From Candidatus Tayloriibacteriota bacterium (GTDB taxonomy: Bacteria; Patescibacteriota; Minisyncoccia; Phycocordibacterales; PALSA-1337), in the NCBI GenBank assembly GCA_943350765.1, contig CALRAJ010000002.1, forward strand, positions 7,994 to 71,993: DNA of 64,000 nt, in the 5' to 3' direction. Of this stretch, positions 6,100 to 41,846 are shown in pieces. A model generated the notes under the pieces. The model searched no databases. It saw only the letters and a list, made by a program, of their open reading frames with translations, and had not been told where the DNA came from. The first letter of the stretch is position 1. The number at the start of each line of letters is the position of its first letter. The translations under genes and the position numbers were made by a program.

Positions 6100-6136
<37 letters not shown>

Positions 6137-13732: not shown

Positions 13733-14881
13733 TTGATTTGTATGACTGAATCGGCAAAAAAAGTATTGATTTTTTCTATCGCCTATTACCCACATTTTAT
13801 TGGTGGTGCGGAAGTGGCGGTAAAGGAGATTACAGATAGATTAGTTGATGATTTTGAATTTCACATGATTACCTTGGGTGCAAAAGGGGATAAAAGTGAT
13901 GAAAGAATCAGCAATGTCTTTGTTCATCGTGTGGGGAGTGTTTCAACTATTTCAAAATATCTATTTCCATTTATAGGCTTTTTTAAAGCCGTTGATTTAC
14001 ACAAAAAACACCACTTTCAGATAACTTGGTCTATTATGGCAAATTATGCTGGTTTTGCTGGGCTATTTTTTAAATATTTGAAGCCAGAAGTAACATCCGT
14101 CTTAACCCTTCAGGAGGGTGATCCGATATTGTATATCAAAAAACGAGTTGGTGTCCTGTACCCTTTGTTTAAAAAGATATTTACCAAAGCAGATCGTATC
14201 CATGCTATTTCAAATTATCTTGCTGATTGGGCAAGAGATATGGGAGCTAAAGGTCGTGTTGATGTTGTGCCAAATGGAGTGGATATTTCACTTTTTTCAA
14301 AAGCAATTTCGGACGATGAGAAAAATTCACTTGCTCGTGAATTGGGAAAAAAGACCGAAGATATTTTCCTGATCACCACTTCTCGCTTGGTTATTAAAAA
14401 TGGAGTGGGGGATATTATAAAATCACTCCAGTATCTACCCACCAATGTAAAATTATTGATAGTAGGTAATGGAGTGCTAGAAGATACCTTAAAGGCTTCC
14501 GTAGATGCCCACAAGCTCTCAGGTAGGGTTTTGTTTGTTGGTTTTATACATCATGCCGATTTACCTAAATATCTGGCTATAAGCGATATATTCGTAAGAC
14601 CAAGCCTGTCTGAGGGGATGGGTAACTCATTTATTGAGGCAATGTCGGCAGGTATACCCGTAGTCGCTACTCCAGTAGGTGGAATAGTTGATTTTTTGGT
14701 TGATCGCGAAACAGGTCTTTTTTGTCAGGTTTCGGACCCAAAAAGTATTGCGGAATGCGTGAAATTACTTTTGTCTGATAAGATGCTATCTACTCGACTG
14801 GTCGAAAATGCTCAAAAAATGGTTTTAAATAATTATGATTGGTCTAGGATCGCTATTTTGATGCGTGAAGTGATCCGATAG
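13733..14881 (+). CDS. Glycosyltransferase family 4 (GT-B)
   Basis: C-terminal GT4 signature SLSEGMGNSFIEAMSAGIPVVATPVGG...VDRETG. Confidence 0.8.
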   Translation: MICMTESAKKVLIFSIAYYPHFIGGAEVAVKEITDRLVDDFEFHMITLGAKGDKSDERISNVFVHRVGSVSTISKYLFPFIGFFKAVDLHKKHHFQITWSIMANYAGFAGLFFKYLKPEVTSVLTLQEGDPILYIKKRVGVLYPLFKKIFTKADRIHAISNYLADWARDMGAKGRVDVVPNGVDISLFSKAISDDEKNSLARELGKKTEDIFLITTSRLVIKNGVGDIIKSLQYLPTNVKLLIVGNGVLEDTLKASVDAHKLSGRVLFVGFIHHADLPKYLAISDIFVRPSLSEGMGNSFIEAMSAGIPVVATPVGGIVDFLVDRETGLFCQVSDPKSIAECVKLLLSDKMLSTRLVENAQKMVLNNYDWSRIAILMREVIR

Positions 14882-14892
14882 TAGCCTTATTT

Positions 14893-15000
14893 ATAGCCAT
14901 TTGAACGGCTCAACATCTAGTTTGTACAGAGTCTTGCTAGACTCTGTATCTTCGTCGCCTTCGCTCCTTGAGCCGTTCAAATGGCTCTGCACAGAGCCAT
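14893..15000. repeat. Composite palindromic element, GAGCCATTTGAACGGCTCAAC family, copy 2
   Basis: AGCCATTTGAACGGCTCAAC ... TACAGAGTCT-TGC-TAGACTCTGTA ... TCTTCGTCGCCTTCGCTCCTTGAGCCGTTCAAATGGCT followed by GGCTCTG-CA-CAGAGCC. Confidence 0.6.
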
Positions 15001-15217
15001 TCTAAGTAACATAAGAGATTGGTAGTGTTTTCAACTTTTTGAGCTTTCTTTGTTATTATGCACACAGAATCTTATGCCACAAATCTTTCCAAATATCATG
15101 CTGCACAAGTTCAGATACATATGAGACTTTTAATTAAGTTTTGTATATGCGAATTTTTAACAAATTTAAAGGAACAAAAGGCTTTTCAGATGGTGAAAAA
15201 AATGATATAAAGTAGAT

Positions 15218-16225
15218 ATGAAGATTTTGCTAGTAACAGGTATTTATCCACCACAAATAGGTGGTCCAGCACAGTATGCCAAGAATCTTGCCGAGGCACT
15301 TCGTGTACAAGGACACGAAGTAGCGGTGCGTACTTATGAGCTGGAGCGGAAATTGCCGATGGGTGTACGACATTTACTTTTCTTTTTCCGAAGTTTGTGG
15401 GCTATGCCGGGGACGGATTTGGTGATTGCACTCGATACTTTTAGTGTGGCTTTTCCTGCGGTTTGTGCAGCAAGACTGTGTGGCAAAAAGATGATTATTC
15501 GGACTGGAGGAGATTTTCTTTGGGAGTTTTATGTTGAGCGAACGGGGGATTTGGTATTGTTACGAGATTTTTATAATACGAGGATTGGCAGATTAAACTT
15601 TAAAGAACGATTGATTTTTAAATCAACCGGTTGGACATTAAGAGGGGTGAACGCGATTATTTTTAGTACAGAGTGGCAGAGAGATATTTTTACACCAGCG
15701 TATGGGCTGGATATGAAAAAGAATTTTATAGTCGAGAATTATTGTGGTGAGAGAATGCCGTCATTTCCAGCGGTTATTAAAAACTTTGTGTCCGCCACTC
15801 GTCCACTCAAGTGGAAAAATCACGTTCGTCTTGCGGAAGCGTTTAAAAAGGTGCTTGGAAAGGGTATCTCAGTCGTACACGATATTAATCCAGTTCCACA
15901 TGATATGTTTATTGAGAAACTTCAGCACGCGTATGTTGTGATATTGGTTTCGCTTGGGGATATTAGTCCAAATATGATTCTGGATACAATTCGTTGCGGT
16001 AAGCCGTTTATTATGACTAAGGAGACGGGTTTTACCGAAAAACTAAAAGATATCGCTTTACTTGTTGATCCTGAAAATGTAGACGATATTGCAGAAAAGA
16101 TTGAGATGTTGTGTGATCCAAAAATATATGCAGAGTATCAGCATCGGGTACAAAACTTTAGCTTTAATCATGGTTGGGACGAGATTGCGAAAGAATTTTT
16201 GGTAGTTAATTCTCAAATAAAATGA
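15218..16225 (+). CDS. Glycosyltransferase (GT4-like)
   Basis: N-terminus MKILLVTGIYPPQIGGPAQYAKNLAEAL typical of GT4; GT-B C-terminal half. Confidence 0.65.
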   Translation: MKILLVTGIYPPQIGGPAQYAKNLAEALRVQGHEVAVRTYELERKLPMGVRHLLFFFRSLWAMPGTDLVIALDTFSVAFPAVCAARLCGKKMIIRTGGDFLWEFYVERTGDLVLLRDFYNTRIGRLNFKERLIFKSTGWTLRGVNAIIFSTEWQRDIFTPAYGLDMKKNFIVENYCGERMPSFPAVIKNFVSATRPLKWKNHVRLAEAFKKVLGKGISVVHDINPVPHDMFIEKLQHAYVVILVSLGDISPNMILDTIRCGKPFIMTKETGFTEKLKDIALLVDPENVDDIAEKIEMLCDPKIYAEYQHRVQNFSFNHGWDEIAKEFLVVNSQIK

Positions 16226-17241
16226 AAAATCTTTTGATGATATCGACTGATCGAAGGATATTTGAAAAGGATAGTGGGGTACGGGAGCGGATGATGGAGT
16301 ATGGTCGTGGTCTGGATGAATTGCATATAATTGTTTTTGCAAGAAAGAGCGCCGGATTTGTGGAGGAAAAAATAGGTGAAAATGTATTTGTATATCCGAC
16401 CCAGTCTACTACAAGGTTTAGATATATTTTTGATGCTATCAAAATCGGTCGCCTGATTTTATCTAAAGACTATCAACCAGAAACTAGTGATTGGTCTGTT
16501 TCCTGTCAGGATCCTTTTGAGACTGGACTTGTGGGTACTAGTTTAGCAAAGCAATTTTATCTGCCACTCGAACTTCAGATACATACTGATATCGGCAGTC
16601 TATATTTCACTTATTCTTTTTTAAATAAGGTGCGGATTATAATAGCTCGATATACGCTCCCAAAAGCGTCACATATTCGAGTGGTTTCCACACGAATACA
16701 AAAATATCTTGTGGATCAATTAAAAATCGATTCGAGTATTATCGAAATTCGCCCGATTCAGGTAAATGTAGAAAGTTTAAAAAATACTCCTGTAATCCTT
16801 GACCTTCACAAAAAATACCCTCAGTTTAAAAAGATTGTATTGATGGCTTCGCGCTTGGAAAAAGAAAAAAATATTGGCTTTGCTTTGCGGGCTTGGAAAA
16901 AAGTTTCGGATATTGTATCTGGGGTGGGTTTGGTGATCGTGGGTTCTGGGGGAGAAGAAAAAATCTTAAAAGAATCGGTGCAGAAACTCAATATTGAAAA
17001 AAGGGTGATATTTGAACCATGGACGAACGAAATTTCTTCATACTATAAGACTGCAGACATTTTTCTACTCAGCTCTCTTTTTGAGGGTTATGGCATGACA
17101 TTGGCTGAGGCAAATGCAGTGGGCTGTGCTATTGTGTCGAGTGATGTGGGGATTGCTCCCGAGCTTTCAAATACCACTGTGTGTCCGGTAAATGATGAAG
17201 AGTGTTTTGTCGAAGCTCTTGTTGCACAATTAACCAAATGA
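16222..17241 (+). CDS. Glycosyltransferase family 4
   Basis: SSLFEGYGMTLAEANAVGCAIVSSDVG motif; start overlaps the upstream stop. Confidence 0.8.
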   Translation: MKNLLMISTDRRIFEKDSGVRERMMEYGRGLDELHIIVFARKSAGFVEEKIGENVFVYPTQSTTRFRYIFDAIKIGRLILSKDYQPETSDWSVSCQDPFETGLVGTSLAKQFYLPLELQIHTDIGSLYFTYSFLNKVRIIIARYTLPKASHIRVVSTRIQKYLVDQLKIDSSIIEIRPIQVNVESLKNTPVILDLHKKYPQFKKIVLMASRLEKEKNIGFALRAWKKVSDIVSGVGLVIVGSGGEEKILKESVQKLNIEKRVIFEPWTNEISSYYKTADIFLLSSLFEGYGMTLAEANAVGCAIVSSDVGIAPELSNTTVCPVNDEECFVEALVAQLTK

Positions 17242-18278
17242 AGAATATATTGATTATTACACAAAAGGTTGACATGAACGACAGTAGCTTTGGTTTTTTC
17301 CATGATTGGCTCAGAGAGTTTTCAAAACTTGCTCAGGTGACAGTACTTGCGCTTGAGGTAGGGCAGTATGATTTACATGGAGTTAAGGTTTTTTCTTTGG
17401 GTAAGGACAAAGGAGTGTCTAAGTTTTTTTGGTTATTAAATCTATATAGATATTTATGGATACACAGAAAACAATATGATTTTGTTTTTGCCCACATGAG
17501 TCCACTGTTTGTGATATTTCCATTTCTACTGATGTTTTGTTTAAAAAAGAATATATATTTATGGTATGTCCATCGTAAAGTCGATCTAAAATTACGCATT
17601 TCCGAAAAACTAGTCTCGAAAATTTTTACTGCAACTAGAGAAAGTTTTGGTATTAAAAGTGATAAGGTCGTGTACATGGGACAGGCGGTCGATGTCGATA
17701 AATTTTATTCAGAAAACCTGGAGCATTTAAATGATAAAAAAGAGTTTCGGGTTATAACTGTGGGGAGGATTACTTCGATTAAAAATCTTGATACTTTGAT
17801 CGAAGCGGTAGCACTAGTTTCAAATGAAATACCGATTATTGTGGATATCGTGGGTGCTCCAGTGACCAAAGGAGATTTTGAATATGAGAAAAGATTGAAA
17901 AAGATGATTATCGAGGGTGGTCTTTCGAGTAAGATAAAGTTTATTGGTTCGGTAGCAAATAAAGATTTACCGAAACTTTTTACGACTGCTAATGCAAGTG
18001 TAAACCTCTGTCCGACAGGGGGTTTGGATAAGGCGGTACTCGAGTCAATGGCATCAGGAATACCTGTTTTAGTGTCAAATACTGCGTTTAAGGCTCATTT
18101 GGGGCAGTATGCAGAGGAATTTACCTTTCCAGAAAGAAATCCGAGGGCTTTGGCCGAGCGGTTGAAAAAGCTCTATGTTCAAAAGGATCTGGTCGAAGCT
18201 GGTCGGTATTTGCAAAAACTGGTACGGGAAAAGTCCTCGATTACGAATCTTATTAAAAGTATTGTTGAAAATCTATGA
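17238..18278 (+). CDS. Glycosyltransferase family 4 (start refined to the ATGA overlap at 17238)
   Basis: LDKAVLESMASGIPVLVSN GT4 motif; MKNILIITQK N-terminus; ATGA start/stop overlap with the previous gene. Confidence 0.75.
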   Translation: MKNILIITQKVDMNDSSFGFFHDWLREFSKLAQVTVLALEVGQYDLHGVKVFSLGKDKGVSKFFWLLNLYRYLWIHRKQYDFVFAHMSPLFVIFPFLLMFCLKKNIYLWYVHRKVDLKLRISEKLVSKIFTATRESFGIKSDKVVYMGQAVDVDKFYSENLEHLNDKKEFRVITVGRITSIKNLDTLIEAVALVSNEIPIIVDIVGAPVTKGDFEYEKRLKKMIIEGGLSSKIKFIGSVANKDLPKLFTTANASVNLCPTGGLDKAVLESMASGIPVLVSNTAFKAHLGQYAEEFTFPERNPRALAERLKKLYVQKDLVEAGRYLQKLVREKSSITNLIKSIVENL

Positions 18279-19339
18279 AAACAGTTTGTTTTTTTGGTAT
18301 TTATGATCCAAACTATGCCCGCAACCGGGTCCTTATTTCTGGTTTTAAATCAAATGGGTATCAAATTGTCGGGTGTCGAGTTGACCCGAGACTTTTTCCT
18401 GGGATAAAAAAGTACATACAACTTTTTAAAGAGTATCAAAAGATAAAGTTAAAAAATTTTGATCAGGTGATTGTTGGGTTTCCAGGACACACTGTTGTGT
18501 GGCTCGCGTATCTTTTTTTTGGTCGTCGGGTTATCTTTGACGCTTTTTTATCTTTGTATGATTCAAATGTGTTTGACCGGAAAATATATGCTACTCGTAG
18601 TATTGGCGCATACAAAGATTGGTTTTTGGACTGGTATAGTTGCACCCTTGCCTCAAGAGTGTTATTGGATACCCACCAGCATGTGAAGTATTTTAGTGAG
18701 CAATTTTGTATTCCAGCAGAAAAATGTTTAGTCATACCGGTCGGTTCAGATGAATCTATTTTCTATCCGCGAAGTAGTACAAACAAGACCGATGTCTACA
18801 CCATCCACTTTCACGGTAGCTTTGTTCCATTACAAGGTATACGGTATATAGTCGAGGCGGCTGAAATACTTAAATATGAAAAAATACTATTTAATATAAT
18901 TGGAAGTGGTCAGGAATTTGATTTAATAAAAAATCAAGTGCGTAATAAAAAACTTGAAAAAACAATTTGTTTTTTAGGACGAAAGGATTTAGACAAATTA
19001 CCTGAATATATGGCGAATTCGGATGTTTGCCTAGGTATTTTTGGGGATACAGAAAAAACAAAACGAGTAATCCCTAACAAACTTTATGAGGCAATTGCGA
19101 TGAAACGGCCAGTTATATCGGCGGATACACCTGCACTACGCGAAATTTTTATTGAAGACGAGACAATATTTTTCTGCAATATTTCAGATGGAGTTAGTTT
19201 GGCAAGTAAAATAACCTGGCTTATGAAAAATAAGGAAAATGGTGAGCAGGTTGCACAAAATGCATATCAACTTTTTAAGGATAAATTGTCACCACATATT
19301 ATTGTCGCTAACTTAATATCAGCTTTACTACAAAGGTGA
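18275..19339 (+). CDS. Glycosyltransferase (GT4-like)
   Basis: MKTVCFFGIYDPNYARNRV..., C-terminal KLYEAIAMKRPVISADTPALREIF. Confidence 0.65.
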   Translation: MKTVCFFGIYDPNYARNRVLISGFKSNGYQIVGCRVDPRLFPGIKKYIQLFKEYQKIKLKNFDQVIVGFPGHTVVWLAYLFFGRRVIFDAFLSLYDSNVFDRKIYATRSIGAYKDWFLDWYSCTLASRVLLDTHQHVKYFSEQFCIPAEKCLVIPVGSDESIFYPRSSTNKTDVYTIHFHGSFVPLQGIRYIVEAAEILKYEKILFNIIGSGQEFDLIKNQVRNKKLEKTICFLGRKDLDKLPEYMANSDVCLGIFGDTEKTKRVIPNKLYEAIAMKRPVISADTPALREIFIEDETIFFCNISDGVSLASKITWLMKNKENGEQVAQNAYQLFKDKLSPHIIVANLISALLQR

Positions 19340-19376
19340 TAGACGATAGACTGTCTAGGTATCTAACATTAAAAAT

Positions 19377-20066
19377 ATGTTTTACTTTGCTGGTACGCGA
19401 AAACCAAACTTTTCTGATGTAAAAAAAATCGACTACAACGACTACTGGACTCACCGTGGTTTTGTTATTAATAAAAAATTAAAAGAACGAGAAGAGATTA
19501 TTTTTGATTATATTCCTAAAGGATCTAGGGTGCTTGATGTCGGTTGCGGTAACTCTCTTTTACCCATAAAACTTAAAAAAAAAGGTGTGGTGGTGGAGGT
19601 GGCGGATATTTCTGAAATTGTCTTAAGGGGATATGGTGCCCATGGAATACCAAGTGTGCGAGTTGATCTTGAAAAGCCCGCGGATATAAGATTGAATACG
19701 AAATATGACTACATTGTTTTGAGCGAAGTTCTTGAACATCTTACCAATCCCGAGGAAGTGGTGGCTGTACTCAAAAAAAGTGCGAAAAATCTCATTATAA
19801 CTATCCCAAATAGTGCTTTTTATAGATTTAGATTACATTTGTTTTTTGTCGGCAGATTCTTTACTCAGTGGGTATATCATCCTTCGGAACATGTGCGGTA
19901 CTGGTCACATGTTGATTTTTTAGATTGGCTCTTTTCTCGAGGACTTGCAGTAATCAAATCTGAGGCATCAAACGGTCTCAAACTTTTTGGTCTACCGTTG
20001 TTTCGTATTTGGCCAAATTTATTTGGGCACCAGATTTGTTATTTTGTAAAAACTAATGAACTATAA
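19377..20066 (+). CDS. Class I SAM-dependent methyltransferase
   Basis: Motif I VLDVGCGNSLL; post-I acidic motif; VLEHL. Confidence 0.75.
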   Translation: MFYFAGTRKPNFSDVKKIDYNDYWTHRGFVINKKLKEREEIIFDYIPKGSRVLDVGCGNSLLPIKLKKKGVVVEVADISEIVLRGYGAHGIPSVRVDLEKPADIRLNTKYDYIVLSEVLEHLTNPEEVVAVLKKSAKNLIITIPNSAFYRFRLHLFFVGRFFTQWVYHPSEHVRYWSHVDFLDWLFSRGLAVIKSEASNGLKLFGLPLFRIWPNLFGHQICYFVKTNEL

Positions 20067-21075
20067 AATTGCGATCATTAGCCCAACTGAAGCAAGTGAT
20101 GTCTTGGCAGACACTATCTTTGACGGATTACTGACACTGCGAAAGACTTTTCCTGAACTTTCATTTTATATACCAAAAGAGCATAACTATATAACCCCAC
20201 TTCATCTGAGCGACCATGAATTATCCACAGAAGACTTTGTTCGATATGCTGAGTCGGCCGACCTAATATTTTTAATGTTCAGTAAGCGCTTTACCAACTT
20301 TGCGCTTGCTGAAAAGATTAATCGTTGGAATAAAACTATCTACATTGACGGTTCTGAGCTCGGTAAAAATCGTCGGTACGATAGCACTATTCAAAAGATG
20401 GTTCTCGATGGAACATTTGACGGGAACGGTAGAATCAATACAGAAATGGTTGAGAAATGCATACTTTATTTTAGGCGAGAAAAACCATATATAAAAAGTA
20501 TTATTCCTCTACCTTTCGGTATCGAATCCCGTTATCAACAGGAGTATTCTAAGGATATTAAAAAGGATATTGATTTTTTCTGTGTATTCGGTCAGGATGA
20601 GTATCCACAGATGAGAAAACATGCACGAGATTTAGTAAAGGACTTTTGTGCTAAGAATAATTTCACCTGCCATACCGAAGTAACCGAAGGATTTAATTTT
20701 GATGCTGGAAAAAAGTCGGGTCGAAATGAATTTTACAGACTCCTTGCTCGTTCAAAGGTCGGTATATCGATAGGTGGTGGTGGATACGATACAAGTCGCT
20801 TCTGGGAAATTCTTGGAAATAACTGTGTTTTGCTTACAGAGAATATTGATATTTATACTCCAGACAGTAATGCTTTGCGGTATGATAGAATACATCAGTT
20901 TACAAATATATACGATTTAGACTACCAATTAAAAAAGTTGGGAGCATTTTTGAAAGATGAGTATAGTCAAGATAATATGGGAGGTGAGTATGATGTGATT
21001 GTAAAAAAGCACTCATCTGTTTCTCGGGTGATGATGATTTTAGAGGAAGCTAGAGTAAAAAAGTTAATTATCTAA
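20056..21075 (+). CDS. Hypothetical protein (possible glycosyltransferase-like)
   Basis: 339-aa ORF in the GT cluster; no clear motif. Confidence 0.45.
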   Translation: MNYKIAIISPTEASDVLADTIFDGLLTLRKTFPELSFYIPKEHNYITPLHLSDHELSTEDFVRYAESADLIFLMFSKRFTNFALAEKINRWNKTIYIDGSELGKNRRYDSTIQKMVLDGTFDGNGRINTEMVEKCILYFRREKPYIKSIIPLPFGIESRYQQEYSKDIKKDIDFFCVFGQDEYPQMRKHARDLVKDFCAKNNFTCHTEVTEGFNFDAGKKSGRNEFYRLLARSKVGISIGGGGYDTSRFWEILGNNCVLLTENIDIYTPDSNALRYDRIHQFTNIYDLDYQLKKLGAFLKDEYSQDNMGGEYDVIVKKHSSVSRVMMILEEARVKKLII

Positions 21076-21085
21076 TTATAATTGG

Positions 21086-21841: not shown

Positions 21842-22953
21842 TAAAACTTTGTTATATAGCAAATATTCGTATACCTACAGAACGGGCACATGGAATACAG
21901 ATAGCGAAAACCTGTGAAGCACTTGGTCACGAGGGTATGGATGTAACCCTAGTGGTTCCTCGTAGGATGAATACAATACGTACAAATGTCTACGATTATT
22001 ATGGTGTAAGGAAAAATTTTAAAACTGTTTTTCTTCCGACTATTGACTTGATCAATTTTGGGAAAATTGGTTTCTCGATCCAATCGGTGCTTTTTGCGGT
22101 TGCTAGTTTTATATACTTGCTGAGAAATGATTTTCAGGTATTTTATTCACGAAATCGGCTACCTCTTTTATTTAGTCTGTGTGTAAGTGGTAAAAAGATT
22201 TGGGAGGTCCATGATGCCAAGAGTGGAGTGCGTACGGATTTTCTTTTGAAAAGGATTTCTGGAATAGTTGCTATTTCTCGTGGTTTGAAAGTTTTTTATG
22301 AAGAGAAAAAAGTTTTAAAAGAAAAAATAATCGTTGCACCAGATGGTGTTTCTATCGACCGTTTTTTTATAACCGAGAGTCAGTTAGAGGTTAGAAAAAA
22401 GCTAGGCTTACCATTGGATAAGAAATTAGTTCTTTATACAGGCCAATTATATGGATGGAAAGGTGTGCAGACGCTTGCCGACGCTGCTGTTTTGCTTGGG
22501 CAGGAGGTAAACACTATTTTTGTCGGTGGCAGTAGTAAACATCAGTCAGATTTTAGGCAGAGAAATTATGACTCAAGGATAATTCTTTTTCCGCAACAGA
22601 CTTATGATAAGATCCCTTATTTTTTAAAAGCTGCTGATGTTTTGGTGCTTCCAAACACTGCAAAAGAATCTATTTCAAATTTGTATACTTCTCCTATGAA
22701 ACTTTTCGAATATATGGCAAGTGGGGTGTCAATTGTCGCATCTAGAATTCCTTCTATATGTGAAGTTTTGAATGATACTAATGCTACACTGGTCGAAGCA
22801 GATAATCCCAAAGCTTTTGCGGATGGCCTACAAAAGGTTTTTCATAATCCTGTCGAGGCGAAAAGAGTGGCAGGTCAAGCGAAAAAGGACAGTCTTCAGT
22901 ATGACTGGTCTGTCCGGGCAAGGACAATAATTAATTTTTGTAATAGTCAATAA
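21838..22953 (+). CDS. Glycosyltransferase family 4 (start refined to the ATGA overlap at 21838)
   Basis: VLVLPNTAKESISNLYTSPMKLFEYMASGVSIVASRIP GT4 motif. Confidence 0.8.
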   Translation: MIKLCYIANIRIPTERAHGIQIAKTCEALGHEGMDVTLVVPRRMNTIRTNVYDYYGVRKNFKTVFLPTIDLINFGKIGFSIQSVLFAVASFIYLLRNDFQVFYSRNRLPLLFSLCVSGKKIWEVHDAKSGVRTDFLLKRISGIVAISRGLKVFYEEKKVLKEKIIVAPDGVSIDRFFITESQLEVRKKLGLPLDKKLVLYTGQLYGWKGVQTLADAAVLLGQEVNTIFVGGSSKHQSDFRQRNYDSRIILFPQQTYDKIPYFLKAADVLVLPNTAKESISNLYTSPMKLFEYMASGVSIVASRIPSICEVLNDTNATLVEADNPKAFADGLQKVFHNPVEAKRVAGQAKKDSLQYDWSVRARTIINFCNSQ

Positions 22954-22956
22954 TAT

Positions 22957-24069
22957 ATGAAAATTCTTTTTATTACAGAGTCGCTTGACCAGAAGAATGG
23001 GTGGGGAAGATATTCTCTTGGTTTAATTAAGCATCTCGGGGAAATGAATATTGAGTTGTATGTGCTTTGTCATAAAGTTTTTAGCACAGAGCCTTTCAGG
23101 CAAATTTCCGGATTACCAACTGCGTTGAATTTCCGGACTAACTATATGTTTTTTCTTTTTCATGTCGTAAAGATTCTGTTTTATAGTAGGTTGGAAAAGC
23201 CGGATATGATTCATTGTGTAGTGGAAACATATGCTCCTATAGCTTGGCTACTTTCAAAATACTGGGGAATTCCGTATGTGCTTACTATTCATGGTTCTTT
23301 TGCTATTAAAACACTAATTAATCCTTGGTACTCTTTGATACAAAAAAGGTGTTATCGGCAGGCGCAGACTATTGTTGCGGTTAGTAATTATACAAAAAAG
23401 AGATTACTTGAAAAAGTTTGGCTGGAGAATGTTGTGGTTATTCCAAATGGTGTGGAGCAATCCTTTTTTTCAATACAACAGACAAATACAGGAGAACCTA
23501 TGGTGTTGGGTGTAGGAGCCTTAAAACATCGTAAAGGTTTCCATGTTGTGTTGCGAGCTCTTGCTGAAGTAAAACGCTTTATTCCCGACATTAAATATTA
23601 CATGGTGGGCAGTACCCAAGATTCAAAGTATAGACTTTATTTGCGTGGAATTATCCATGAATTAGGTCTTGAGGAAACAGTTGTTGAATGTGGAAGTATT
23701 GATGAGGTGGAGCTCAAAAAACTCTATAGTATCTCGAGGTTGTTTGTGCTGACCCCAATCAGCGATGAGTATGATTTTGAAGGCTTTGGCCTTGTCTATC
23801 TTGAGGCAAATGCTACAGGTCTGCCCGTTATCGGTACTTATAATAGTGGAGCAGAAGATGCAATAAGTGATGGCAAAAGTGGTTTTTTGGTGCCACCAGA
23901 GAGCGTGTCGGCCTTGGCGGAAAAGATTTTGCTAGTACTTCAAGATTCTTCAGTATATAATAAGCTATCTCAAGGGGGGCAAGTCTGGGCAAAAAGTATG
24001 TTGTGGACTGAAATAATAAAAAGATATCAAAAAGTTTATGATCTTAAAAGACATTCTATATACAATTAA
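22957..24069 (+). CDS. Glycosyltransferase family 4
   Basis: FEGFGLVYLEANATGLPVIGTYNSGAEDAISDGKSGFLV GT4 motif. Confidence 0.8.
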   Translation: MKILFITESLDQKNGWGRYSLGLIKHLGEMNIELYVLCHKVFSTEPFRQISGLPTALNFRTNYMFFLFHVVKILFYSRLEKPDMIHCVVETYAPIAWLLSKYWGIPYVLTIHGSFAIKTLINPWYSLIQKRCYRQAQTIVAVSNYTKKRLLEKVWLENVVVIPNGVEQSFFSIQQTNTGEPMVLGVGALKHRKGFHVVLRALAEVKRFIPDIKYYMVGSTQDSKYRLYLRGIIHELGLEETVVECGSIDEVELKKLYSISRLFVLTPISDEYDFEGFGLVYLEANATGLPVIGTYNSGAEDAISDGKSGFLVPPESVSALAEKILLVLQDSSVYNKLSQGGQVWAKSMLWTEIIKRYQKVYDLKRHSIYN

Positions 24070-24772
24070 AGAGGATTTTAAAAAACTAAGAATTTATCCA
24101 GATGTATCTCTTGAGAATGGGTATGTAGTTGATTACGAAAAATATTGGAAAAAACGAGGTAGAAATAATCAATCGGTACTGACGCAGTGGCAGAAAGATC
24201 GTGCTGACCGTATCTCAAAGATGGTTTCAAAAGATGATGTGATCATTGATGTCGGATGCGGAGACGCTTCGCTTTTAAAATATTTAATTGATAAAACTGG
24301 AGTCCGTGGGGTTGGGGTCGATATGAGTGAGCCGATTCTCGAAAATGCAAAAAATATAGATGTAGAGACAATCGTCCTTGATATCTCAAAGATAGATACC
24401 CTGGGTCAGTTACCTGAAGCTGACTATATAATGGGACTGGAAATTTTGGAGCACATGCCGAATCCCGAAGAGTTTATAATGGCTGTTCGTAAGAAGGTTA
24501 GAAAAGGTATGATTTTTTCTTTCCCTAATACTGGGTATTATGCACATCGCTTGAGGTTACTTTTTGGCTCGTTCCCATTACAATGGATTTTGCACCCAAG
24601 TGAGCATTTACGCTACTGGACTGTACGAGATGCGCGTTTTTGGGTTGATTCACTTGGCTTTAAAATGGATAAAATTATTTTGTATCAAGGTGTAACCGTG
24701 CTAAATAATATATTTCCTTCGCTTTTTGGGAAGGGAATCATTATTAAAATTTCCGAAAAAAATGAAGGATAA
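24038..24772 (+). CDS. Class I SAM-dependent methyltransferase
   Basis: Motif I IIDVGCGDASLL; paralogous to 19377-20066 (shared EILEHMPNPEEF, HPSEHLRYW). Confidence 0.75.
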   Translation: MILKDILYTIKEDFKKLRIYPDVSLENGYVVDYEKYWKKRGRNNQSVLTQWQKDRADRISKMVSKDDVIIDVGCGDASLLKYLIDKTGVRGVGVDMSEPILENAKNIDVETIVLDISKIDTLGQLPEADYIMGLEILEHMPNPEEFIMAVRKKVRKGMIFSFPNTGYYAHRLRLLFGSFPLQWILHPSEHLRYWTVRDARFWVDSLGFKMDKIILYQGVTVLNNIFPSLFGKGIIIKISEKNEG

Positions 24773-26144
24773 GACCCTTCTGATAACAGTATTTCATAGT
24801 TTTATTTCAAAAAACTTTCTTAACACAGAGGCATTCTCTTTGTTGAAATCCTCGCCAGGACTCAAGATAATATTAATGGTCCCTAAAAATAAAGAAAGCT
24901 TTTTTACAGAACAGTATTCTGGTGTGAATGTCGTGGTGGCTGGATTTGATTTTGGTAGTATTCTCAGTAGAAAAAAAGTACAAATTTTATCTGCACTGAG
25001 CCATCTTCTTTTGGATTCCCATTATCTTTGGTATAAAAAGGTGGAACGGCGTGACAAAAGTACCCACTTACTAAGATCCATTAAGTATTATTTTGAACTA
25101 GCATTTACATATGTTTTTTCCGGTAAAAAGTATGCACATTCTGTGCTAAGATTTCTATTTAAAAAGATGCTTGTGGTCCCAGAAATTGAAGCTTTGTTCG
25201 ATCGATATGTACCAGATATTGTATTTTCTACAGATGTGTTTGATGAAATGGATGTCTTGGTAAATAGGGAGGCCAGAGCTCGAAGTATAAGGATTATTGG
25301 TATGGTCAGATCATGGGACAATTGCTACAGTAAGGGTGTTTTGCGAGTCATCCCCGACACTCTTTTGGTTAATAATGTAGAAATTAAAAAAGAAGCAATC
25401 TCTCTCCACGATGTTTGTGAAGATCAAATCAGTATTGTTGGTTTACCGCAATATGACCAGTTTGTGAATGGTGTTCGGACAGAGCGTAAAGACTTCTTTC
25501 GTGAAATAGGCGCAGATCAAAATAAAAAATTAATTCTTTTTTCTCCTGCTGGTTCAGTACTCTCAGATATTGATTGGCAGTTATGTACTATATTGAAGCG
25601 ATTGGTTGACACACATAAAATAAATGAACCGGTGACATTTCTAATTCGGAATCACCCACATCATCCGGCCGACTTGTCACTATTTAAGTCAGATTCAAAT
25701 TTTATAATAGAAAGACCCGGTACCTCGTTCGGCCTTAATGGTAAGGAGGTCGAGTTGTCTAGAAAAGACTCTCAACATCTCGGAGACTCTCTTTATTATA
25801 GTGATATTGTTATGTATGTCGCGACGACTTTGGGTAATGATTCATTACTTTTTGATAAGCCACAGATTATCATTAATTTTGACGGTTGGGAGAACAAAGA
25901 ATATGCAAGAAGCACTAAGAGATACCATAACGAAGACCATATGAAAAAGATGATAGCGTGCGGGGGTGTTTCGGTGGTTACAAATGAACAGGAGTTGACG
26001 ATAGCTCTAAACGCTTATTTGAAGGACCCTGGATATTTAAAGGAGGGGCGCTTGCGGACACTTGCTCAGCAGGTTTGTTATACGGACGGCAAGTCATGTG
26101 AAAGAATCACTCGTTGTCTCAATGAAGAACTGAAAAAAGTATAG
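24762..26144 (+). CDS. Hypothetical polysaccharide-biosynthesis protein (GT-B-like?)
   Basis: About 460-aa ORF in the glycan locus; no confident motif. Confidence 0.45.
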   Translation: MKDKTLLITVFHSFISKNFLNTEAFSLLKSSPGLKIILMVPKNKESFFTEQYSGVNVVVAGFDFGSILSRKKVQILSALSHLLLDSHYLWYKKVERRDKSTHLLRSIKYYFELAFTYVFSGKKYAHSVLRFLFKKMLVVPEIEALFDRYVPDIVFSTDVFDEMDVLVNREARARSIRIIGMVRSWDNCYSKGVLRVIPDTLLVNNVEIKKEAISLHDVCEDQISIVGLPQYDQFVNGVRTERKDFFREIGADQNKKLILFSPAGSVLSDIDWQLCTILKRLVDTHKINEPVTFLIRNHPHHPADLSLFKSDSNFIIERPGTSFGLNGKEVELSRKDSQHLGDSLYYSDIVMYVATTLGNDSLLFDKPQIIINFDGWENKEYARSTKRYHNEDHMKKMIACGGVSVVTNEQELTIALNAYLKDPGYLKEGRLRTLAQQVCYTDGKSCERITRCLNEELKKV

Positions 26145-26178
26145 TCAAAACTATTTGATATGGTAATATACATGGAAT

Positions 26179-27390
26179 ATGGATCAAAATAATGTTGTTG
26201 GTATTCAGATAAAGGACATACTCAAATCCACTCGTCTTGGTTTATTTCCATTACCGACAGATGTTTCTATTGAAGAATGCTGGACATGTTTCTGTTGTAC
26301 TAAAAAACTGGAAGTTTTTGCTGTATTAATTGGGGTAAAAGTACATTCTCAAATTCGTGTCGGAGTCTGTGGTTACTGTGGGTATATGGGGTATATTGAT
26401 CGGCCAGCCAAGGCATGGCTTACTTCCTTTTATTCTATTGATTGGGATAAAGAGTTTATGCGTTCGGCTACACAGATGAAAAGTGATGTTGTTTTGCAGA
26501 AGGGTGGTGTTAAAGGTAGTAGACAGCGTGCTTTTGAGCTCCATCGTCAGGTTCCGGTTGATAAAAAGAAGCCTTATTTTGAAATTGGAAGTGGTTACGG
26601 CCAAGTTATGAAGAACTTTGAAATTGCAGGTTTCGAAAAGCTCTATGGCATAGAGAATTCTAAACATCGAACTGAATTGGTAAAAAAAGTGTTTGGTTTC
26701 GAAATCCATCACGGTGATTTTGGGAGTAGAGAGGTCACAGAAAAGATCAATAAAAATGCTCCATACGGGCTTATTTTTTCACACCATGTGCTTGAGCATG
26801 TATACGATCCAAATGAGGTGGTGCGTGCTATGGCAGGGATGCAGGATGAAGGGGACTATGCTATTTTTGCAGTACCCAACGTTGCTGGTGAACATATGAA
26901 TTATGTCACTTTGTACTGGCCACATTTACATGGGTTTACAAAAGAGTCGCTCGAAATACTTTTTAATCGTCATGGTTATGAGGTCGTTGTCGACGGGTCC
27001 CCAGATATACTTAATATTATTTTTGTCCTAAAAAAAACAAAGAATCCAAAAGCAATTTTTAAAAAGAGAGATGATTATGTTGCTGAGGCAAAAAAACGAA
27101 TTCGTGTTGCCATGAGTGCAGGTGTCTTGTCGAAAGGTCTATCTGAGCTTCTTTGGGACCAAAAAATCACAGAGAGAGATAATTCATCAGTGCAAAAAAT
27201 AAGCGGGGGATTTTTCGGGGGAATTATTATTTGGCATGCGAAACAAATAATTTCTTGGATAAAGTCCAGAATTTTTAAAAGGCTTAGTGTGCAGTATTCA
27301 TTGCTTGTTTCGCCTGTTTTTGAGAAGATTAGTAAATATGATGCTTTCGAGATACAATTTAAAAAGAATATTACTTTCTTAATAAAATAG
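26179..27390 (+). CDS. SAM-dependent methyltransferase with N-terminal Cys-rich (zinc-ribbon-like) region
   Basis: CWTCFCC..CGYCGYM cysteine cluster; motif I FEIGSGYGQV; HHVLEHVYDP. Confidence 0.6.
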   Translation: MDQNNVVGIQIKDILKSTRLGLFPLPTDVSIEECWTCFCCTKKLEVFAVLIGVKVHSQIRVGVCGYCGYMGYIDRPAKAWLTSFYSIDWDKEFMRSATQMKSDVVLQKGGVKGSRQRAFELHRQVPVDKKKPYFEIGSGYGQVMKNFEIAGFEKLYGIENSKHRTELVKKVFGFEIHHGDFGSREVTEKINKNAPYGLIFSHHVLEHVYDPNEVVRAMAGMQDEGDYAIFAVPNVAGEHMNYVTLYWPHLHGFTKESLEILFNRHGYEVVVDGSPDILNIIFVLKKTKNPKAIFKKRDDYVAEAKKRIRVAMSAGVLSKGLSELLWDQKITERDNSSVQKISGGFFGGIIIWHAKQIISWIKSRIFKRLSVQYSLLVSPVFEKISKYDAFEIQFKKNITFLIK

Positions 27391-27392
27391 AT

Positions 27393-28145
27393 ATGATTCA
27401 GTATTATAATGTTGAGGCTTTTGCTCAGTTAAAAAAAGAACGGAAAACAGCCGGCAGGGGATTTAAGTACGGTTTTGTTACGGGTGTGTTTAAGGAAGAT
27501 GTATATAAGGAACTCATTCGCACTTTCCCTGATGTTAAGAAGTTTGAATTAGTAGATAAAGAATCCGGTGGAGGACATAAACGATTTTATGTTGGACCAA
27601 ATTATTATAGCGGAAAACATTGGGGGTCTACTAGACATCTCAATGGACTTCCTGAAATATGGAAAGAGGTTATAAAAGAATCTGGTTCAAAAGAACTACT
27701 TGATTTAGTAGCTGACGCTACAGGTGTTGATTGTAACTCACTTTGTAATTTTGGATTTACATACGGCAACGAGGGGTGTGTTCAGGGGCCACATATTGAT
27801 GGTGCTGCTCGACCAAATGACCCATCTCCTGTACACGCCACCATCGCCTGCCTGCTTTACTTTAATGAAAAAACAGGTGGTGTCGCGGGGACGGAAGTCT
27901 ATGATATTGATCGAAAAACAGTTTTGTTTGCGGTGCCTGATTTGCGAAACAGTTTCTTCTATTTTGAACAACATCCTGATTCTTGGCATGGTTTTCCGAC
28001 TGTACCAAAGGGGGCAGACCGTCGCCTGGTGAGTCTTTCATTTAGTCAGGAGAAAGATATAATCAAGATAGATGACTCATTCCTTAATGTAGTTTACCTT
28101 AAGAGTTTTGTTAAAGGGTTAATTAAAAAGATATTTAGTCGCTAG
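27393..28145 (+). CDS. 2OG-Fe(II) oxygenase-like protein
   Basis: HxD (GPHIDGAA), distal His (HPDSWHGF) and RxS (RRLVSLSF) triad arrangement. Confidence 0.45.
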   Translation: MIQYYNVEAFAQLKKERKTAGRGFKYGFVTGVFKEDVYKELIRTFPDVKKFELVDKESGGGHKRFYVGPNYYSGKHWGSTRHLNGLPEIWKEVIKESGSKELLDLVADATGVDCNSLCNFGFTYGNEGCVQGPHIDGAARPNDPSPVHATIACLLYFNEKTGGVAGTEVYDIDRKTVLFAVPDLRNSFFYFEQHPDSWHGFPTVPKGADRRLVSLSFSQEKDIIKIDDSFLNVVYLKSFVKGLIKKIFSR

Positions 28146-28196
28146 CGTTACGGTTGGTAAACATTATTGCAGGTACACTTTGTTTATCAGGTCGAT

Positions 28197-28925
28197 CTAT
28201 TTGTCTAACAAAAGTTTTTTGAATCTTATTTCTGACACTTCCCATTCGTCTGGGGTGTTAATATCCATTTCGTATTTTGCTGGTTCAGCCGTCACACAGA
28301 GCTCTACTTTATCGCCATAGAGATTTGGTCGCTCTGGGTCGTAGAGATTTTTTGGCTTCAAGACATATGCGATGTCATTTCGAGCGTAACATTTCTGAGG
28401 AAAATCTTGTCGACGGGTGAGTATTTTTTTAAGGGGCACATTTCCCCAGAGGGTAATTTTGCTATCCGGATTTCTGGTCAATGTCCAGTACGGAGTATGG
28501 TTTGCAGGTGTTTCGTTTACTGTTATCACAGAGTCAGCCAATGTTTTTTTAAAAATCTCGATTGCTTCTGTTAGATGATCTGCCTTTCGAGCTGGACTTG
28601 TTGGAAGGACCATAATAAGACCATCCGCCTCATAACCCTCGTTTTCTTTGAGCCATTCATATGTATGTTTTAGGACGGGTTCTATACCTATGGTGTCAAT
28701 TGAAAATTCTGGTGGTCTTAAAAAAGGTACTTCGGCACCATGTTCTTTTGCAATATCTGATATTTCTTTACTGTCCGTCGAGACGATGACCCTATCTATT
28801 AGAGGACAATTCTTTGCAGTTTCTATTGTCCATGCGATCAGGGGCTTACCACAAAAATCTCGGATATTTTTAAAAGGGATAGATTTTGAGCCACCTCTTG
28901 CTGGTATAATTGCTATAATTTTCAT
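28197..28925 (-). CDS. CMP-nonulosonic acid synthetase (acylneuraminate cytidylyltransferase family)
   Basis: MKIIAIIPARGGSKSIPFKNI...GKPLIAWTIE N-terminus diagnostic of the CMP-NeuAc/CMP-KDO synthetase fold. Confidence 0.8.
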   Translation of the reverse strand: MKIIAIIPARGGSKSIPFKNIRDFCGKPLIAWTIETAKNCPLIDRVIVSTDSKEISDIAKEHGAEVPFLRPPEFSIDTIGIEPVLKHTYEWLKENEGYEADGLIMVLPTSPARKADHLTEAIEIFKKTLADSVITVNETPANHTPYWTLTRNPDSKITLWGNVPLKKILTRRQDFPQKCYARNDIAYVLKPKNLYDPERPNLYGDKVELCVTAEPAKYEMDINTPDEWEVSEIRFKKLLLDK

Positions 28926-28957
28926 AACATATAGTATACTATATCAGTCTTTAATAT

Positions 28958-29905
28958 ATGCAAATTTTAAATTGGAAAATCGACCCAGTTTTGAAGAAAG
29001 AAATTGATGAGCATTATCGAACCGATTTTGCCTTGTCGATTAAAAATGAACCCGTAATCAATATAGTAAAAAAGATTACATTTGATAGTGTAGCTCCAAA
29101 TATTACCATTGAAGATGTGAAAATCTTTATGGATTATATAAATGAAACATTTCTAGATAGGGGAATCAAAGGTGTTGGACTTGAGGTTGGGGGAGGTTGC
29201 GGATTTTTTAGTGCATTACTTGCAACATATGCATCGGTTGAAAAAGTTTATTCTATTGAGATTTGTGAAAATATTGTTCGTGAGCTGATGCCTAAAGTTA
29301 TAGAAGAAGTTGCCGGGGAACACAAGGTGTATGAAAAAGTAATTGGCTGTGTCGGTGATTTTGATCGACTTGAGTTACCGAATGCATCGGTTGATTTTGT
29401 ATTTGATTTCTACTCACTACATCATTCATCAGATATAAAAAAGACTTTTACGGAGATTTGTCGAGTGCTCAAACATGGAGGCTTTATCTTTTGTTTTGAC
29501 AAAACCCGCGCAAATTCATTGACAGACGAAGGTCTAGAAAAGCTTCTCGACACAGAGTACTCCTCGGAAACAAAAATATCGATGGGTTTACCCCCGAACA
29601 TATTCCATACCCGTCGCATGAATGGTGAAAAAGAATACCGGCTCAAGGATTGGCAAAATTCGTTTTTAACAGCTGGGTTTAAAACTTTTAAGCATTATCA
29701 TATTGCTCGTCTTTCGGACACAAAATCTTTTACGAATCTAATTAAAAAAACATTATCGCTTCTTCCGGTTTCTATTCAGACTTTTTTTACGAAAATTCTG
29801 TCTCGTGATGGCAACAAAAATAATCTCGAGCAGTCCCATAAGATATATACCAAACTCGTCAACAATTTCCCTAAAGAGATTTCATTGATGGTGGTGCGGA
29901 AATAG
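28958..29905 (+). CDS. Class I SAM-dependent methyltransferase
   Basis: Motif I GLEVGGGCGFFS; VLKHGGFIF. Confidence 0.7.
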   Translation: MQILNWKIDPVLKKEIDEHYRTDFALSIKNEPVINIVKKITFDSVAPNITIEDVKIFMDYINETFLDRGIKGVGLEVGGGCGFFSALLATYASVEKVYSIEICENIVRELMPKVIEEVAGEHKVYEKVIGCVGDFDRLELPNASVDFVFDFYSLHHSSDIKKTFTEICRVLKHGGFIFCFDKTRANSLTDEGLEKLLDTEYSSETKISMGLPPNIFHTRRMNGEKEYRLKDWQNSFLTAGFKTFKHYHIARLSDTKSFTNLIKKTLSLLPVSIQTFFTKILSRDGNKNNLEQSHKIYTKLVNNFPKEISLMVVRK

Positions 29906-29956
29906 GTAGGTAGGAAAATAAAAAGAGGCTACCGAAGTAGCCCCGTGTGTTTGTGT

Positions 29957-41842: not shown

Positions 41843-41846
41843 AAAT

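Follow-up and report, generated by a model that had tools for sequence, protein, structure and literature searches.

A probable surface-glycan locus with a nonulosonic acid module in a bacterium of the Patescibacteria

What does a bacterium of the candidate phyla radiation (CPR, Patescibacteria) build with a dense run of glycosyltransferase (GT) and S-adenosylmethionine (SAM) methyltransferase (MT) genes? The question is raised by a 64,000-nucleotide stretch of contig CALRAJ010000002.1 (assembly GCA_943350765.1, Candidatus Tayloriibacteriota bacterium; positions 7,994 to 71,993, forward strand), here called the window. A sequence-only reading had described a co-directional block of GT and MT genes at 13733-29905 and had predicted from it a heavily O-methylated, possibly hydroxylated glycan. 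We find this dense block in place, with small corrections, but its 3' boundary cuts a longer locus of about 25 kb (13742-38628), of which the block covers about two thirds. It is likely that 13742-38628 forms one chromosomal surface-glycan locus of a Patescibacteria bacterium, and our results support an operon-like locus for glycan biosynthesis. Its product is most likely an elaborate, methylated chain of sugars on the cell surface that includes a sialic-acid-like sugar. The locus encodes ten GTs, four class I SAM MTs, a 2-oxoglutarate- and Fe(II)-dependent (2OG-Fe(II)) oxygenase, a B12-radical-SAM enzyme, a nonulosonic (sialic-acid-like) acid pathway, a flippase of the Wzx type and a Wzy_C protein whose 12 helices are followed by a tail of tetratricopeptide repeats (TPR). 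The earlier gene list had missed the nonulosonic acid pathway, the B12-radical-SAM enzyme, the flippase and the Wzy_C-TPR protein.

Extent, setting and conservation of the locus

The locus is flanked by murD (9464) on one side and murB (39209) on the other. Of the 16 genes in 13733-29905, 15 lie on the plus strand; the exception is the CMP-sugar synthetase gene at 28197-28925, so that the block is not fully co-directional as had been thought. The ATGA start/stop overlaps noted before at 17238, 21838 and 47811 are real, and 16222 and 18275 show them too. Hydrophobic-segment analysis gave no convincing membrane segments for the enzymes of the locus, whereas Wzx and the Wzy_C-TPR protein are polytopic. 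The Obg protein and the pyruvate kinase of the window fall into 90%-identity clusters shared with proteins named 'Patescibacteria group bacterium'. These housekeeping genes support placing the source organism in the CPR, as had been presumed. The genes of the locus are as follows.

13742-14881, plus strand: GT4_a, GT4 glycosyltransferase (Pfam Glycos_transf_1 E 6.5e-38 and Glyco_transf_4)
15218-16225, plus strand: GT4_b, divergent GT4 (weak Glyco_trans_4_4, Glyco_trans_1_4 and Glycos_transf_1 matches; both GT4 halves covered)
16222-17241, plus strand: GT4_c (Glycos_transf_1 E 2.2e-27; ATGA start over the GT4_b stop)
17238-18278, plus strand: GT4_d (Glycos_transf_1 E 5.3e-22; ATGA overlap)
18275-19339, plus strand: GT4_e (Glycos_transf_1 E 2.4e-21; ATGA overlap)
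19377-20066, plus strand: MT1, MetW-like methyltransferase (Pfam MetW E 1.1e-19; Methyltransf_23)
20056-21075, plus strand: unk339, divergent GT-B-type glycosyltransferase (faint Glyco_trans_1_2 match)
21086-21841, plus strand: unk251, GT-A-fold glycosyltransferase (AlphaFold2 (AF2) model with a predicted local distance difference test score (pLDDT) of 94.6; Foldseek)
21838-22953, plus strand: GT4_f (Glycos_transf_1 E 5.3e-22; ATGA overlap)
22957-24069, plus strand: GT4_g (Glycos_transf_1 E 5.5e-35; Glyco_transf_4 E 6.6e-23)
24038-24772, plus strand: MT2, MetW-like methyltransferase (MetW E 1.6e-12; Methyltransf_23)
24762-26144, plus strand: TagB-like GT-B transferase (Pfam Glyphos_transf (TagB/TagF) E 2.9e-9)
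26179-27390, plus strand: MT3, methyltransferase with an N-terminal zinc ribbon and TcaB9/KijD1/MtmC-like architecture (Methyltransf_23)
27393-28145, plus strand: 2OG-Fe(II) oxygenase (invariant HxD…H…R; profile matches hydroxylases in the PDB)
28197-28925, minus strand: CMP-nonulosonic acid synthetase, a cytidylyltransferase (CTP_transf_3 E 9e-24)
28958-29905, plus strand: MT4, class I SAM methyltransferase (Methyltransf_11 E 1.1e-14)
29957-31720, minus strand: B12-binding radical SAM enzyme, probable methylase (Radical_SAM E 1e-15 and B12-binding)
31844-32701, plus strand: short-chain dehydrogenase/reductase (SDR; adh_short_C2 E 1.6e-29)
33030-33647, plus strand: haloacid dehalogenase (HAD) phosphatase of the KdsC/KDN-9-P phosphatase family (NCBIfam KdsC E 2.9e-22, KDN-9-P phosphatase E 1.6e-19)
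33790-34743, plus strand: NeuB-family nonulosonic acid synthase (Pfam NeuB E 7.5e-70)
34797-36143, minus strand: Wzx-type (MOP family) flippase (Pfam Polysacc_synt E 1.4e-14; at least 8 hydrophobic segments)
36163-38628, plus strand: Wzy_C (O-antigen ligase/polymerase) membrane protein with C-terminal TPR (Wzy_C E 2.2e-20 and TPR families)

The relatives with which we compared the locus are independent metagenomic contigs (numbered L002 and so on) found by an alignment-based MT3 scan; the 26179 protein alone as query had retrieved no relative locus. From 20056 onward these contigs repeat the gene order of the window, with protein identities of 40-87%. The five 5' GT4 genes and MT1 (19377), on the other hand, are strain-variable, so the expectation that the locus is conserved as a unit holds from about 20056 onward and fails for its 5' third. 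Instead of the 5' GT4 block, relatives carry dTDP-rhamnose or dehydratase/aminotransferase genes, and GT4_a has no counterpart in any relative compared. L073, whose MT3 is 83% identical, keeps the order from unk339 to the Wzy_C-TPR gene except for one extra gene of about 307 codons between the unk339 and unk251 homologues, and has dTDP-rhamnose genes in place of the five 5' GT4 genes and MT1. Identity to L073 is 83-93% for the nonulosonic acid module, 72% for the phosphatase, 75% for Wzx and the Wzy_C-TPR protein and 58-72% for the GTs (70% for GT4_f). The order GT4-GT4-MT2-TagB-like-MT3-(extra MT)-oxygenase-MT4-radical SAM-SDR-HAD-CMP-synthetase-NeuB-Wzx-Wzy_C-TPR is kept in L002 (MT3 57% identical). 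The TagB-like, MT3, oxygenase, NeuB, CMP-synthetase, Wzx and Wzy_C-TPR genes co-occur in L002-L013 and L073. In distant relatives TagB-like, MT3 and oxygenase genes stay adjacent, near those for NeuB, CMP-synthetase, SDR, Wzx and Wzy_C-TPR, while sugar-precursor and GT genes vary. Of the 24 loci that contain MT3, many of them on truncated contigs, 12 yielded a NeuB homologue and 12 a CMP-synthetase homologue. The locus of L005 continues into murB and secA, like the window. That the decoration programme is unusually elaborate, as had been proposed, is a judgement, and the loci of the relatives are comparably large.

This combination of a conserved synthesis and export part with a variable GT part is the layout typical of O-antigen and capsule loci. 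Wzx/Wzy loci with nonulosonic acid genes also share with the window a Wzx flippase, a Wzy_C-domain membrane protein and tight operon-like packing. Unlike them, the window has no initiating transferase, Wzz or export machinery, and its Wzy_C domain is fused to TPR. CPR bacteria have neither an outer membrane nor lipid A.

Glycosyltransferases and their coupled methyltransferases

The ten GTs comprise seven GT4 enzymes, one divergent GT-B, one GT-A without a Pfam match and one TagB-like enzyme. Eight GT4 genes had been counted before; Pfam gives seven, six of them strong (13742, 16222, 17238, 18275, 21838 and 22957) and one weak (15218). Three further open reading frames (ORFs) that had been left unassigned as GT-like are indeed all GTs, but belong to the divergent GT-B, GT-A and TagB-like types and not to GT4. 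The ORF of GT4_a opens at TTG 13733, and ATG 13742 is the likelier start. Since pairwise identities among the GT4 proteins reach only 21-32%, we reject a recent tandem duplication. For unk339, an exhaustive HMMER search followed by Pfam annotation of the homologues recovered Glyco_trans_1_2, the C-terminal domain of GT-B enzymes, at E 1e-16; unk339 homologues also occur fused to GT2, GT4 or Methyltransf_23/MetW domains, and the gene is kept in L002, L005 and L073. No match to unk251 was found in Pfam or NCBIfam. The top PDB matches of its model in Foldseek are all GT-A transferases, including B4GALNT1, WrtF, SpsA, TarS and TarP, and in its homologues, which are mostly from CPR where an organism is named, D18, D63 and D88 do not vary and E87 hardly does.

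All four MTs that had been called at 19377, 24038, 26179 and 28958 are class I SAM MTs according to Pfam. They all stay below the NCBIfam equivalog cut-offs for MTs acting on ubiquinone, rRNA or tRNA and for other housekeeping MTs, so that the possibility of non-sugar enzymes of that kind, raised with the original call, finds no backing there. MT1 and MT2 had been described as paralogs, and with 37% identity (E 5e-38) they are clearly homologous; MT2 is 83% identical to its counterpart in L073 and 67% to that in L002. MT1 and MT2 each share 11 nt with the GT gene that follows them (unk339 and the TagB-like gene, respectively), and MT2 shares a further 32 nt with GT4_g before it. MT domains akin to MT1 and MT2 occur elsewhere fused to GTs of the unk339 type. 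The 11-nt overlap of a MetW-like MT with a downstream GT suggests that each of the two probably methylates the sugar handled by that GT, and the translational coupling together with the likeness to GT-fused MTs argues for a sugar-directed activity.

A run of GT4 and MT genes could also belong to an anti-phage conflict system, in which GTs and MTs modify nucleic acids or phage parts and in which the neighbouring VirD4/HerA-like ATPase and a restriction-modification (R-M) system would complete a defence island. Weak PF20706 GT4-conflict matches lie near the cut-off on 16222 and 22957, PADLOC reports mad8/HerA on 11688-13727 and a weak mad2 on MT1 and MT2, and an R-M system lies at 40571-43605. 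However, the GT4-conflict matches are far weaker than generic Glycos_transf_1 at the same genes and the mad2 matches span only the generic SAM-binding region. PADLOC gives nothing for the radical SAM enzyme, the Wzy_C protein or the four GT4 genes submitted to it, and the locus holds a complete set for sugar activation and export. We therefore reject the defence reading, above all because PADLOC is blank on the four submitted GT4 genes, and accord it next to no probability.

The nonulosonic acid module and its probable tailoring enzymes

Among the defining genes of the locus are those for the NeuB-family synthase, the HAD phosphatase and the cytidylyltransferase, which lie downstream of the GTs. 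The synthase scores 243 bits with NeuB_NnaB and 195 bits with PseI, both under the equivalog cut-offs, and matches sialic acid synthases in the PDB (E 9e-42); it is short (317 aa) and has no Pfam match other than the NeuB domain. The cytidylyltransferase reaches 150 bits with the PseF model (cut-off 205 bits), and its best PDB matches are CMP-N-acetylneuraminic acid (CMP-Neu5Ac) synthetases (E 3e-33). Both NCBIfam matches of the phosphatase are under the cut-off; in the PDB it matches structures of the YrbI/KdsC and BT1713 types, and in relatives it is kept beside NeuB. Pfam scans of the window found no hydrolysing 2-epimerase, 4,6-dehydratase, aminotransferase or N-acetyltransferase; some relatives have dehydratase and DegT genes within their variable part. 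Because the phosphatase is conserved and the NeuC, Pse and Leg precursor genes are absent, we infer a route through a sugar phosphate.

In Bacteroides thetaiotaomicron, the pathway for KDN (PDB 3e81/3e8m) likewise combines a synthase of the NeuB family (KDN-9-P synthase) and a cytidylyltransferase (a CMP-synthetase) with a KdsC-family HAD phosphatase of C0 type (the KDN-9-P phosphatase BT1713), and the window phosphatase matches the KDN-9-P phosphatase model and the BT1713 structures. Unlike in that pathway, the scores in the window are under the cut-offs, the KdsC models score slightly higher and NeuB is short.

Next to these genes lie MT3, the oxygenase, MT4, the radical SAM enzyme and the SDR. 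MT3 appears to have a three-part architecture of about 400 aa like that of TcaB9, KijD1 and MtmC, with an N-terminal Cys4 zinc ribbon and a class I SAM domain with a conserved E-H pair (E206-H207). In the ribbon (C37-x2-C40…C64-x2-C67), three cysteines (C37, C64 and C67) never vary, and C40 is present in 26 of 36 sequences (72%). As a single sequence, MT3 has one significant PDB match, the sugar C3-methyltransferase MtmC; the family profile also matches TcaB9 and KijD1. These three likewise make up the top 18 PDB neighbours of the AF2 model (pLDDT 93.4) in Foldseek, at E 7e-15 to 8e-12 over about 305 aligned columns with template modelling (TM) scores of 0.46-0.51; generic MTs follow with E-values about five orders of magnitude worse. 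They are the best sequence and fold matches of MT3 in the PDB, yet share only 13-18% identity with it, and their genomic partners are dTDP-4-keto-6-deoxyhexose genes whereas those of MT3 are CMP-nonulosonic acid genes. Full-length MT3 homologues in species-representative genomes are almost entirely from CPR, including Kaiserbacteria, Zambryskibacteria, Giovannonibacteria, Sungiibacteriota and Parcubacteria. The modelled structure suggests that MT3 may C-methylate a nucleotide-linked sugar. Since it is nearest to nucleotide-sugar C3-methyltransferases, the predicted O-methylation of the glycan is not established, while methylation and hydroxylation as such are a reasonable prediction.

That the closest structural relatives of MT3 stem from antibiotic deoxysugar pathways, and that B12-radical-SAM and 2OG enzymes are common in secondary-metabolite clusters, could point to a gene cluster for a glycosylated small molecule, whose deoxysugars would be tailored by the MT, radical SAM, oxygenase, SDR and GT enzymes. 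No polyketide synthase, non-ribosomal peptide synthetase, terpene or ribosomally synthesised and post-translationally modified peptide scaffold gene is present in the window, nor is an NDP-hexose 4,6-dehydratase or an aminotransferase. Wzx, Wzy_C, NeuB and the CMP-synthetase point to a surface glycan instead, and the chromosomal site by murB and secA is conserved in relatives. With scaffold genes absent and Wzx, Wzy_C and NeuB present, we reject this explanation as very improbable.

The oxygenase had been proposed from the sequence, and this assignment stands. Its Pfam 2OG-FeII_Oxy_3 score of 22.1 bits is under the 27-bit cut-off, but H134-x-D136, H199 and R210, the iron triad and the basic 2OG-binding residue, are invariant in 40 homologues. 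The family profile matches the 'putative hydroxylase' 9blq in the PDB (E 1.2e-6) and a P4H-domain protein; a literature search on 9BLQ and 9EI6, the closest solved homologues, found nothing relevant. All homologues with a source name come from CPR genomes, and in close relatives the gene always lies directly 3' of MT3. KdoO, the Fe(II)/2OG-dependent 3-hydroxylase of Kdo in the lipopolysaccharide of Burkholderia and Yersinia, is a 2OG oxygenase with a 3-deoxy-ulosonic acid as substrate and offers, by analogy only, a functional precedent for 27393-28145; the Pfam scan gave no detectable match of this protein to the KdoO family. MT4 accompanies the nonulosonic acid module and is kept in L002, L003, L008 and L073; its best, weak PDB match is a D-glucose O-methyltransferase. 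The radical SAM ORF opens at TTG 31780, and we used ATG 31720 as start. The protein matches NCBIfam families of B12-radical-SAM methyltransferases, all under the cut-off, and a hairpin near its gene, at 29925-29944, could terminate transcription in both directions. The positions of this enzyme and of the SDR within the module are conserved in relatives. As the module of MT3, MT4, oxygenase and TagB-like genes travels with NeuB and the CMP-synthetase, tailoring by MT3, MT4 and the oxygenase is probably directed at the nonulosonic acid and not at the whole glycan. As parts of the NeuB-linked module, these three are not general decorators at every second or third gene.

The genes for the radical SAM enzyme, the phosphatase and NeuB stand out strongly by a GC content of 0.55-0.56 (0.557 for the radical SAM gene) and a third-position GC content (GC3) of 0.59-0.67, compared with a window median GC3 of 0.33 and 0.45 for the next-highest gene. 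The excess, noted also in L002, L004, L005, L007 and L073, recurs in orthologues of relatives at 45-67% protein identity, so that a single recent horizontal transfer fits poorly and does not explain the outliers. Compared with L073, the synonymous divergence (dS) is about 0.47 for NeuB and the radical SAM gene, about three-fold below that of their neighbours (0.9-2.4 or saturated). Repeated exchange of these genes or a constraint on synonymous sites is possible.

A candidate for the transfer step is the TagB-like enzyme, whose homologue adjoins MT3 in 17 of the 24 MT3-containing loci. It carries R296-x-H298-P299, of which the proline is found in 21 and the histidine in 14 of 23 homologues, and matches the C-terminal part of the NCBIfam BFO_1060 model (E 3.2e-9; 36.4 bits, cut-off 200). 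The O-glycosylation locus of Tannerella forsythia, which reportedly carries several MTs and a Wzx, resembles the window in its multiple GTs, MTs and flippase. The hosts differ, Tannerella being a diderm of the Bacteroidota and the source of the window a monoderm CPR bacterium, and we know of no Tannerella counterpart to the tailoring set of MT3, 2OG oxygenase and B12-radical-SAM enzyme. Members of the BFO_1060 family, which combine a TagB-superfamily GT-B domain with an HP motif as the window enzyme does, add CMP-activated nonulosonic acids in T. forsythia and are genetically required there for adding pseudaminic (Pse) or legionaminic acid (Leg) derivatives to the S-layer O-glycan (PMC5420450). 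The window differs from Tannerella in that its BFO_1060 match is weak and confined to the C-terminal half and in that it has a KdsC-type phosphatase but no PseB/C/H/G or Leg genes. The TagB-like enzyme is a candidate CMP-nonulosonic acid transferase.

The distant relatives L012, L019 and L022 encode three to four paralogous TagB-like genes per locus, a hint that the polymers of some CPR lineages may be rich in the acidic sugar. Such paralogues, the Glyphos_transf (TagB/TagF) domain and the position of the locus between murD and murB would also suit a wall-anchored polymer of the teichoic or 'teichulosonic acid' type, made by the TagB/TagF-like enzyme as polymerase with the GT4 enzymes building a linkage unit or side branches; Kdn-containing teichulosonic acids occur in actinomycete walls. 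On the other hand, the window has no TagGH-type ABC exporter or LytR-CpsA-Psr (LCP) ligase, and a Wzx flippase and a Wzy_C protein are found instead. A single TagB-like gene next to nine other GTs suits a heterooligosaccharide better than a homopolymer. A wall polymer of this kind is improbable in our view.

Proposed assembly and attachment of the glycan

The Wzx-type flippase keeps its position in relatives, and the Wzy_C-TPR protein lies at the same position in L002, L003, L005 and L073. The latter has 821 aa with about 12 hydrophobic segments followed by a soluble tail of about 270 aa; searches of PDB and NCBIfam returned matches to the TPR alone and none for the membrane domain. A second polytopic membrane protein with C-terminal TPR (798 aa) is encoded at 60957-63353. 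The TPR parts of the two proteins are 23% identical, and the membrane part of this second one has no Pfam or NCBIfam family match.

For the surface-glycan locus that we consider likely, we infer the following substrates and order of steps. Up to ten soluble GTs would build a lipid-linked oligosaccharide on the cytoplasmic face of the membrane, and the two MetW-like MTs would probably methylate the sugar handled by the overlapping downstream GT. In parallel, the NeuB-type synthase would condense phosphoenolpyruvate with a sugar, probably a sugar phosphate, the KdsC/KDN-9-P-type phosphatase would strip the phosphate and the cytidylyltransferase would yield the CMP-activated nonulosonic acid. A conserved set of enzymes, namely MT3, MT4, the SDR, the 2OG-Fe(II) oxygenase and the B12-radical-SAM enzyme, could modify the acid or its CMP form, and the TagB-like transferase would put the acid on the glycan. 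The Wzx-type protein would flip the finished unit, and the Wzy_C-TPR protein would then polymerise it or ligate it to a surface acceptor.

Several observations weigh against this scheme. None of NeuB, the phosphatase, the CMP-synthetase and the TagB-like protein reaches its NCBIfam equivalog cut-off; the sugar may differ from all known nonulosonic acids. No NeuC, PseB/C/H/G or LegB/C/H/G genes are present in the window. The TM score of the MT3 fold match is only about 0.5, and Pfam PF08421 (Methyltransf_13) and PF08484 (Methyltransf_14) are not reported for MT3 at E <= 0.01. The Wzy_C domain is common to polymerases, WaaL-type ligases and protein O-oligosaccharyltransferases. Finally, the 64-kb window holds no initiating phosphoglycosyltransferase, chain-length regulator or LCP ligase; initiating transferases of the WbaP/PglC and WecA/MraY types were sought by domain scans of window ORFs of at least 110 aa, and such a gene may lie in another part of the genome. 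With none of these in the window, the lipid-linked route and the acceptor are unproven.

The last step could be general protein O-glycosylation, with the Wzy_C-TPR protein as an O-oligosaccharyltransferase of the PglL/WsaB type that transfers the glycan en bloc to pilins, S-layer or other surface proteins and recognises acceptors through its TPR tail. Such a function would refine the end of the proposed scheme without contradicting it. Wzy_C is the catalytic domain of known O-oligosaccharyltransferases, a C-terminal TPR region of about 270 aa follows the roughly 12 helices, and no Wzz or LCP gene lies in the window. CPR cells are monoderm, which makes a lipid A-core acceptor of the WaaL type unlikely. 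A protein O-glycan is also what the closest characterised TagB-like nonulosonic acid transferases serve (PMC5420450). However, no acceptor protein or sequon was identified, and the membrane domain, having no NCBIfam or PDB match, offers nothing that separates it from Wzy polymerases. We thus hold protein O-glycosylation to be a tenable but tentative account of the final step. More doubtful is a further-reaching proposal, namely that the set of TagB-like transferase, MT3, oxygenase, MT4, radical SAM enzyme, SDR, phosphatase and short NeuB makes and installs an undescribed C-methylated and/or hydroxylated non-amino nonulosonic acid characteristic of Patescibacteria, and that the Wzy_C-TPR protein attaches the glycan to surface proteins such as pili or the S-layer that mediate the epibiotic lifestyle.

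The S-layer glycosylation (slg) clusters of Geobacillus stearothermophilus and Paenibacillus alvei, which encode Wzy_C-type O-oligosaccharyltransferases (WsaB/WsfB) and the methyltransferase-GT WsaE, share with the window a monoderm envelope, a Wzy_C enzyme as last step and the physical coupling of an MT to a GT, which takes the form of 11-nt overlaps in the window and of MT-GT fusions in its homologues. They differ in the absence of nonulosonic acid and, in G. stearothermophilus, in an ABC transporter and a rhamnan product; no S-layer gene was identified in the window.

Within the locus, the 337-bp gap that separates GT4_a from GT4_b contains a nested-hairpin repeat element (14895-14986, unstranded) with a perfect outer inverted repeat of 19 bp and an RNA minimum free energy of -48.8 kcal/mol (z -7.7). 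A second copy of about 95 nt at 7596-7690, between tRNA-Ile and pyruvate kinase, shows compensatory changes in its inner stem. An Rfam search of the gap (14850-15230) gave sub-threshold chance matches only. The element may be a repeat element, a terminator or a structured RNA and could split the locus into transcription units. Upstream of the locus, 11688-13727 encodes a 679-aa VirD4/TraG/TraD/HerA-like P-loop ATPase (PADLOC mad8, E 9e-15) and ends 5 bp before TTG 13733; it may belong to the type IV secretion machinery of Patescibacteria rather than to the glycan locus. The R-M cassette at 40571-43605, between murB and secA, comprises two N6_N4 DNA methylases, a BsaWI-like endonuclease and a small ORF; in L005, secA follows murB directly without it.

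Elsewhere in the window, a complete 16S rRNA gene (4742-6255, model positions 1-1533) is accompanied by tRNA-Ile (7327-7401) and a short match to group II intron D1-D4 (6447-6525; 39.6 bits, gathering score 35). A possible extension of the 16S gene to 6747 in a restricted Rfam scan we regard as an artefact, as the full scan covers model positions 1-1533 at 4742-6255. The window contains no 23S rRNA, which suggests a split rRNA operon. The transketolase is divided into two genes for its N- and C-terminal halves (57603-58469 and 59838-60857), separated by two unrelated ORFs, one of which has a hemicentin-type galactose-binding-like domain.

Patescibacteria have genomes of about a megabase and live attached to other cells. 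Devoting some 25 kb of such a genome to one locus argues that the surface glycan is important, and host attachment, phage evasion or interaction with immune systems are possible roles. In Southlakia, transposon sequencing found one predicted exopolysaccharide biosynthesis gene to be essential, and inactivation of two adjacent genes caused a growth deficit (PMC10633639). A recent perspective on Patescibacteria biology makes no mention of glycans, and our full-text literature search returned no paper that pairs 'nonulosonic' with 'Patescibacteria'. The locus type itself is well known, so that our findings extend rather than overturn existing knowledge; in this group it is apparently undescribed. 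New are the lineage, an uncharacterised tailoring module that travels with nonulosonic acid genes and a GT-A family without a Pfam match. The zinc-ribbon MT, the 2OG oxygenase, whose named members are all from CPR, and this GT-A constitute three uncharacterised enzyme families. Overall, the locus offers testable candidates for a sialic-acid-like sugar in CPR, and its module provides a marker for surveying glycan diversity across CPR genomes.

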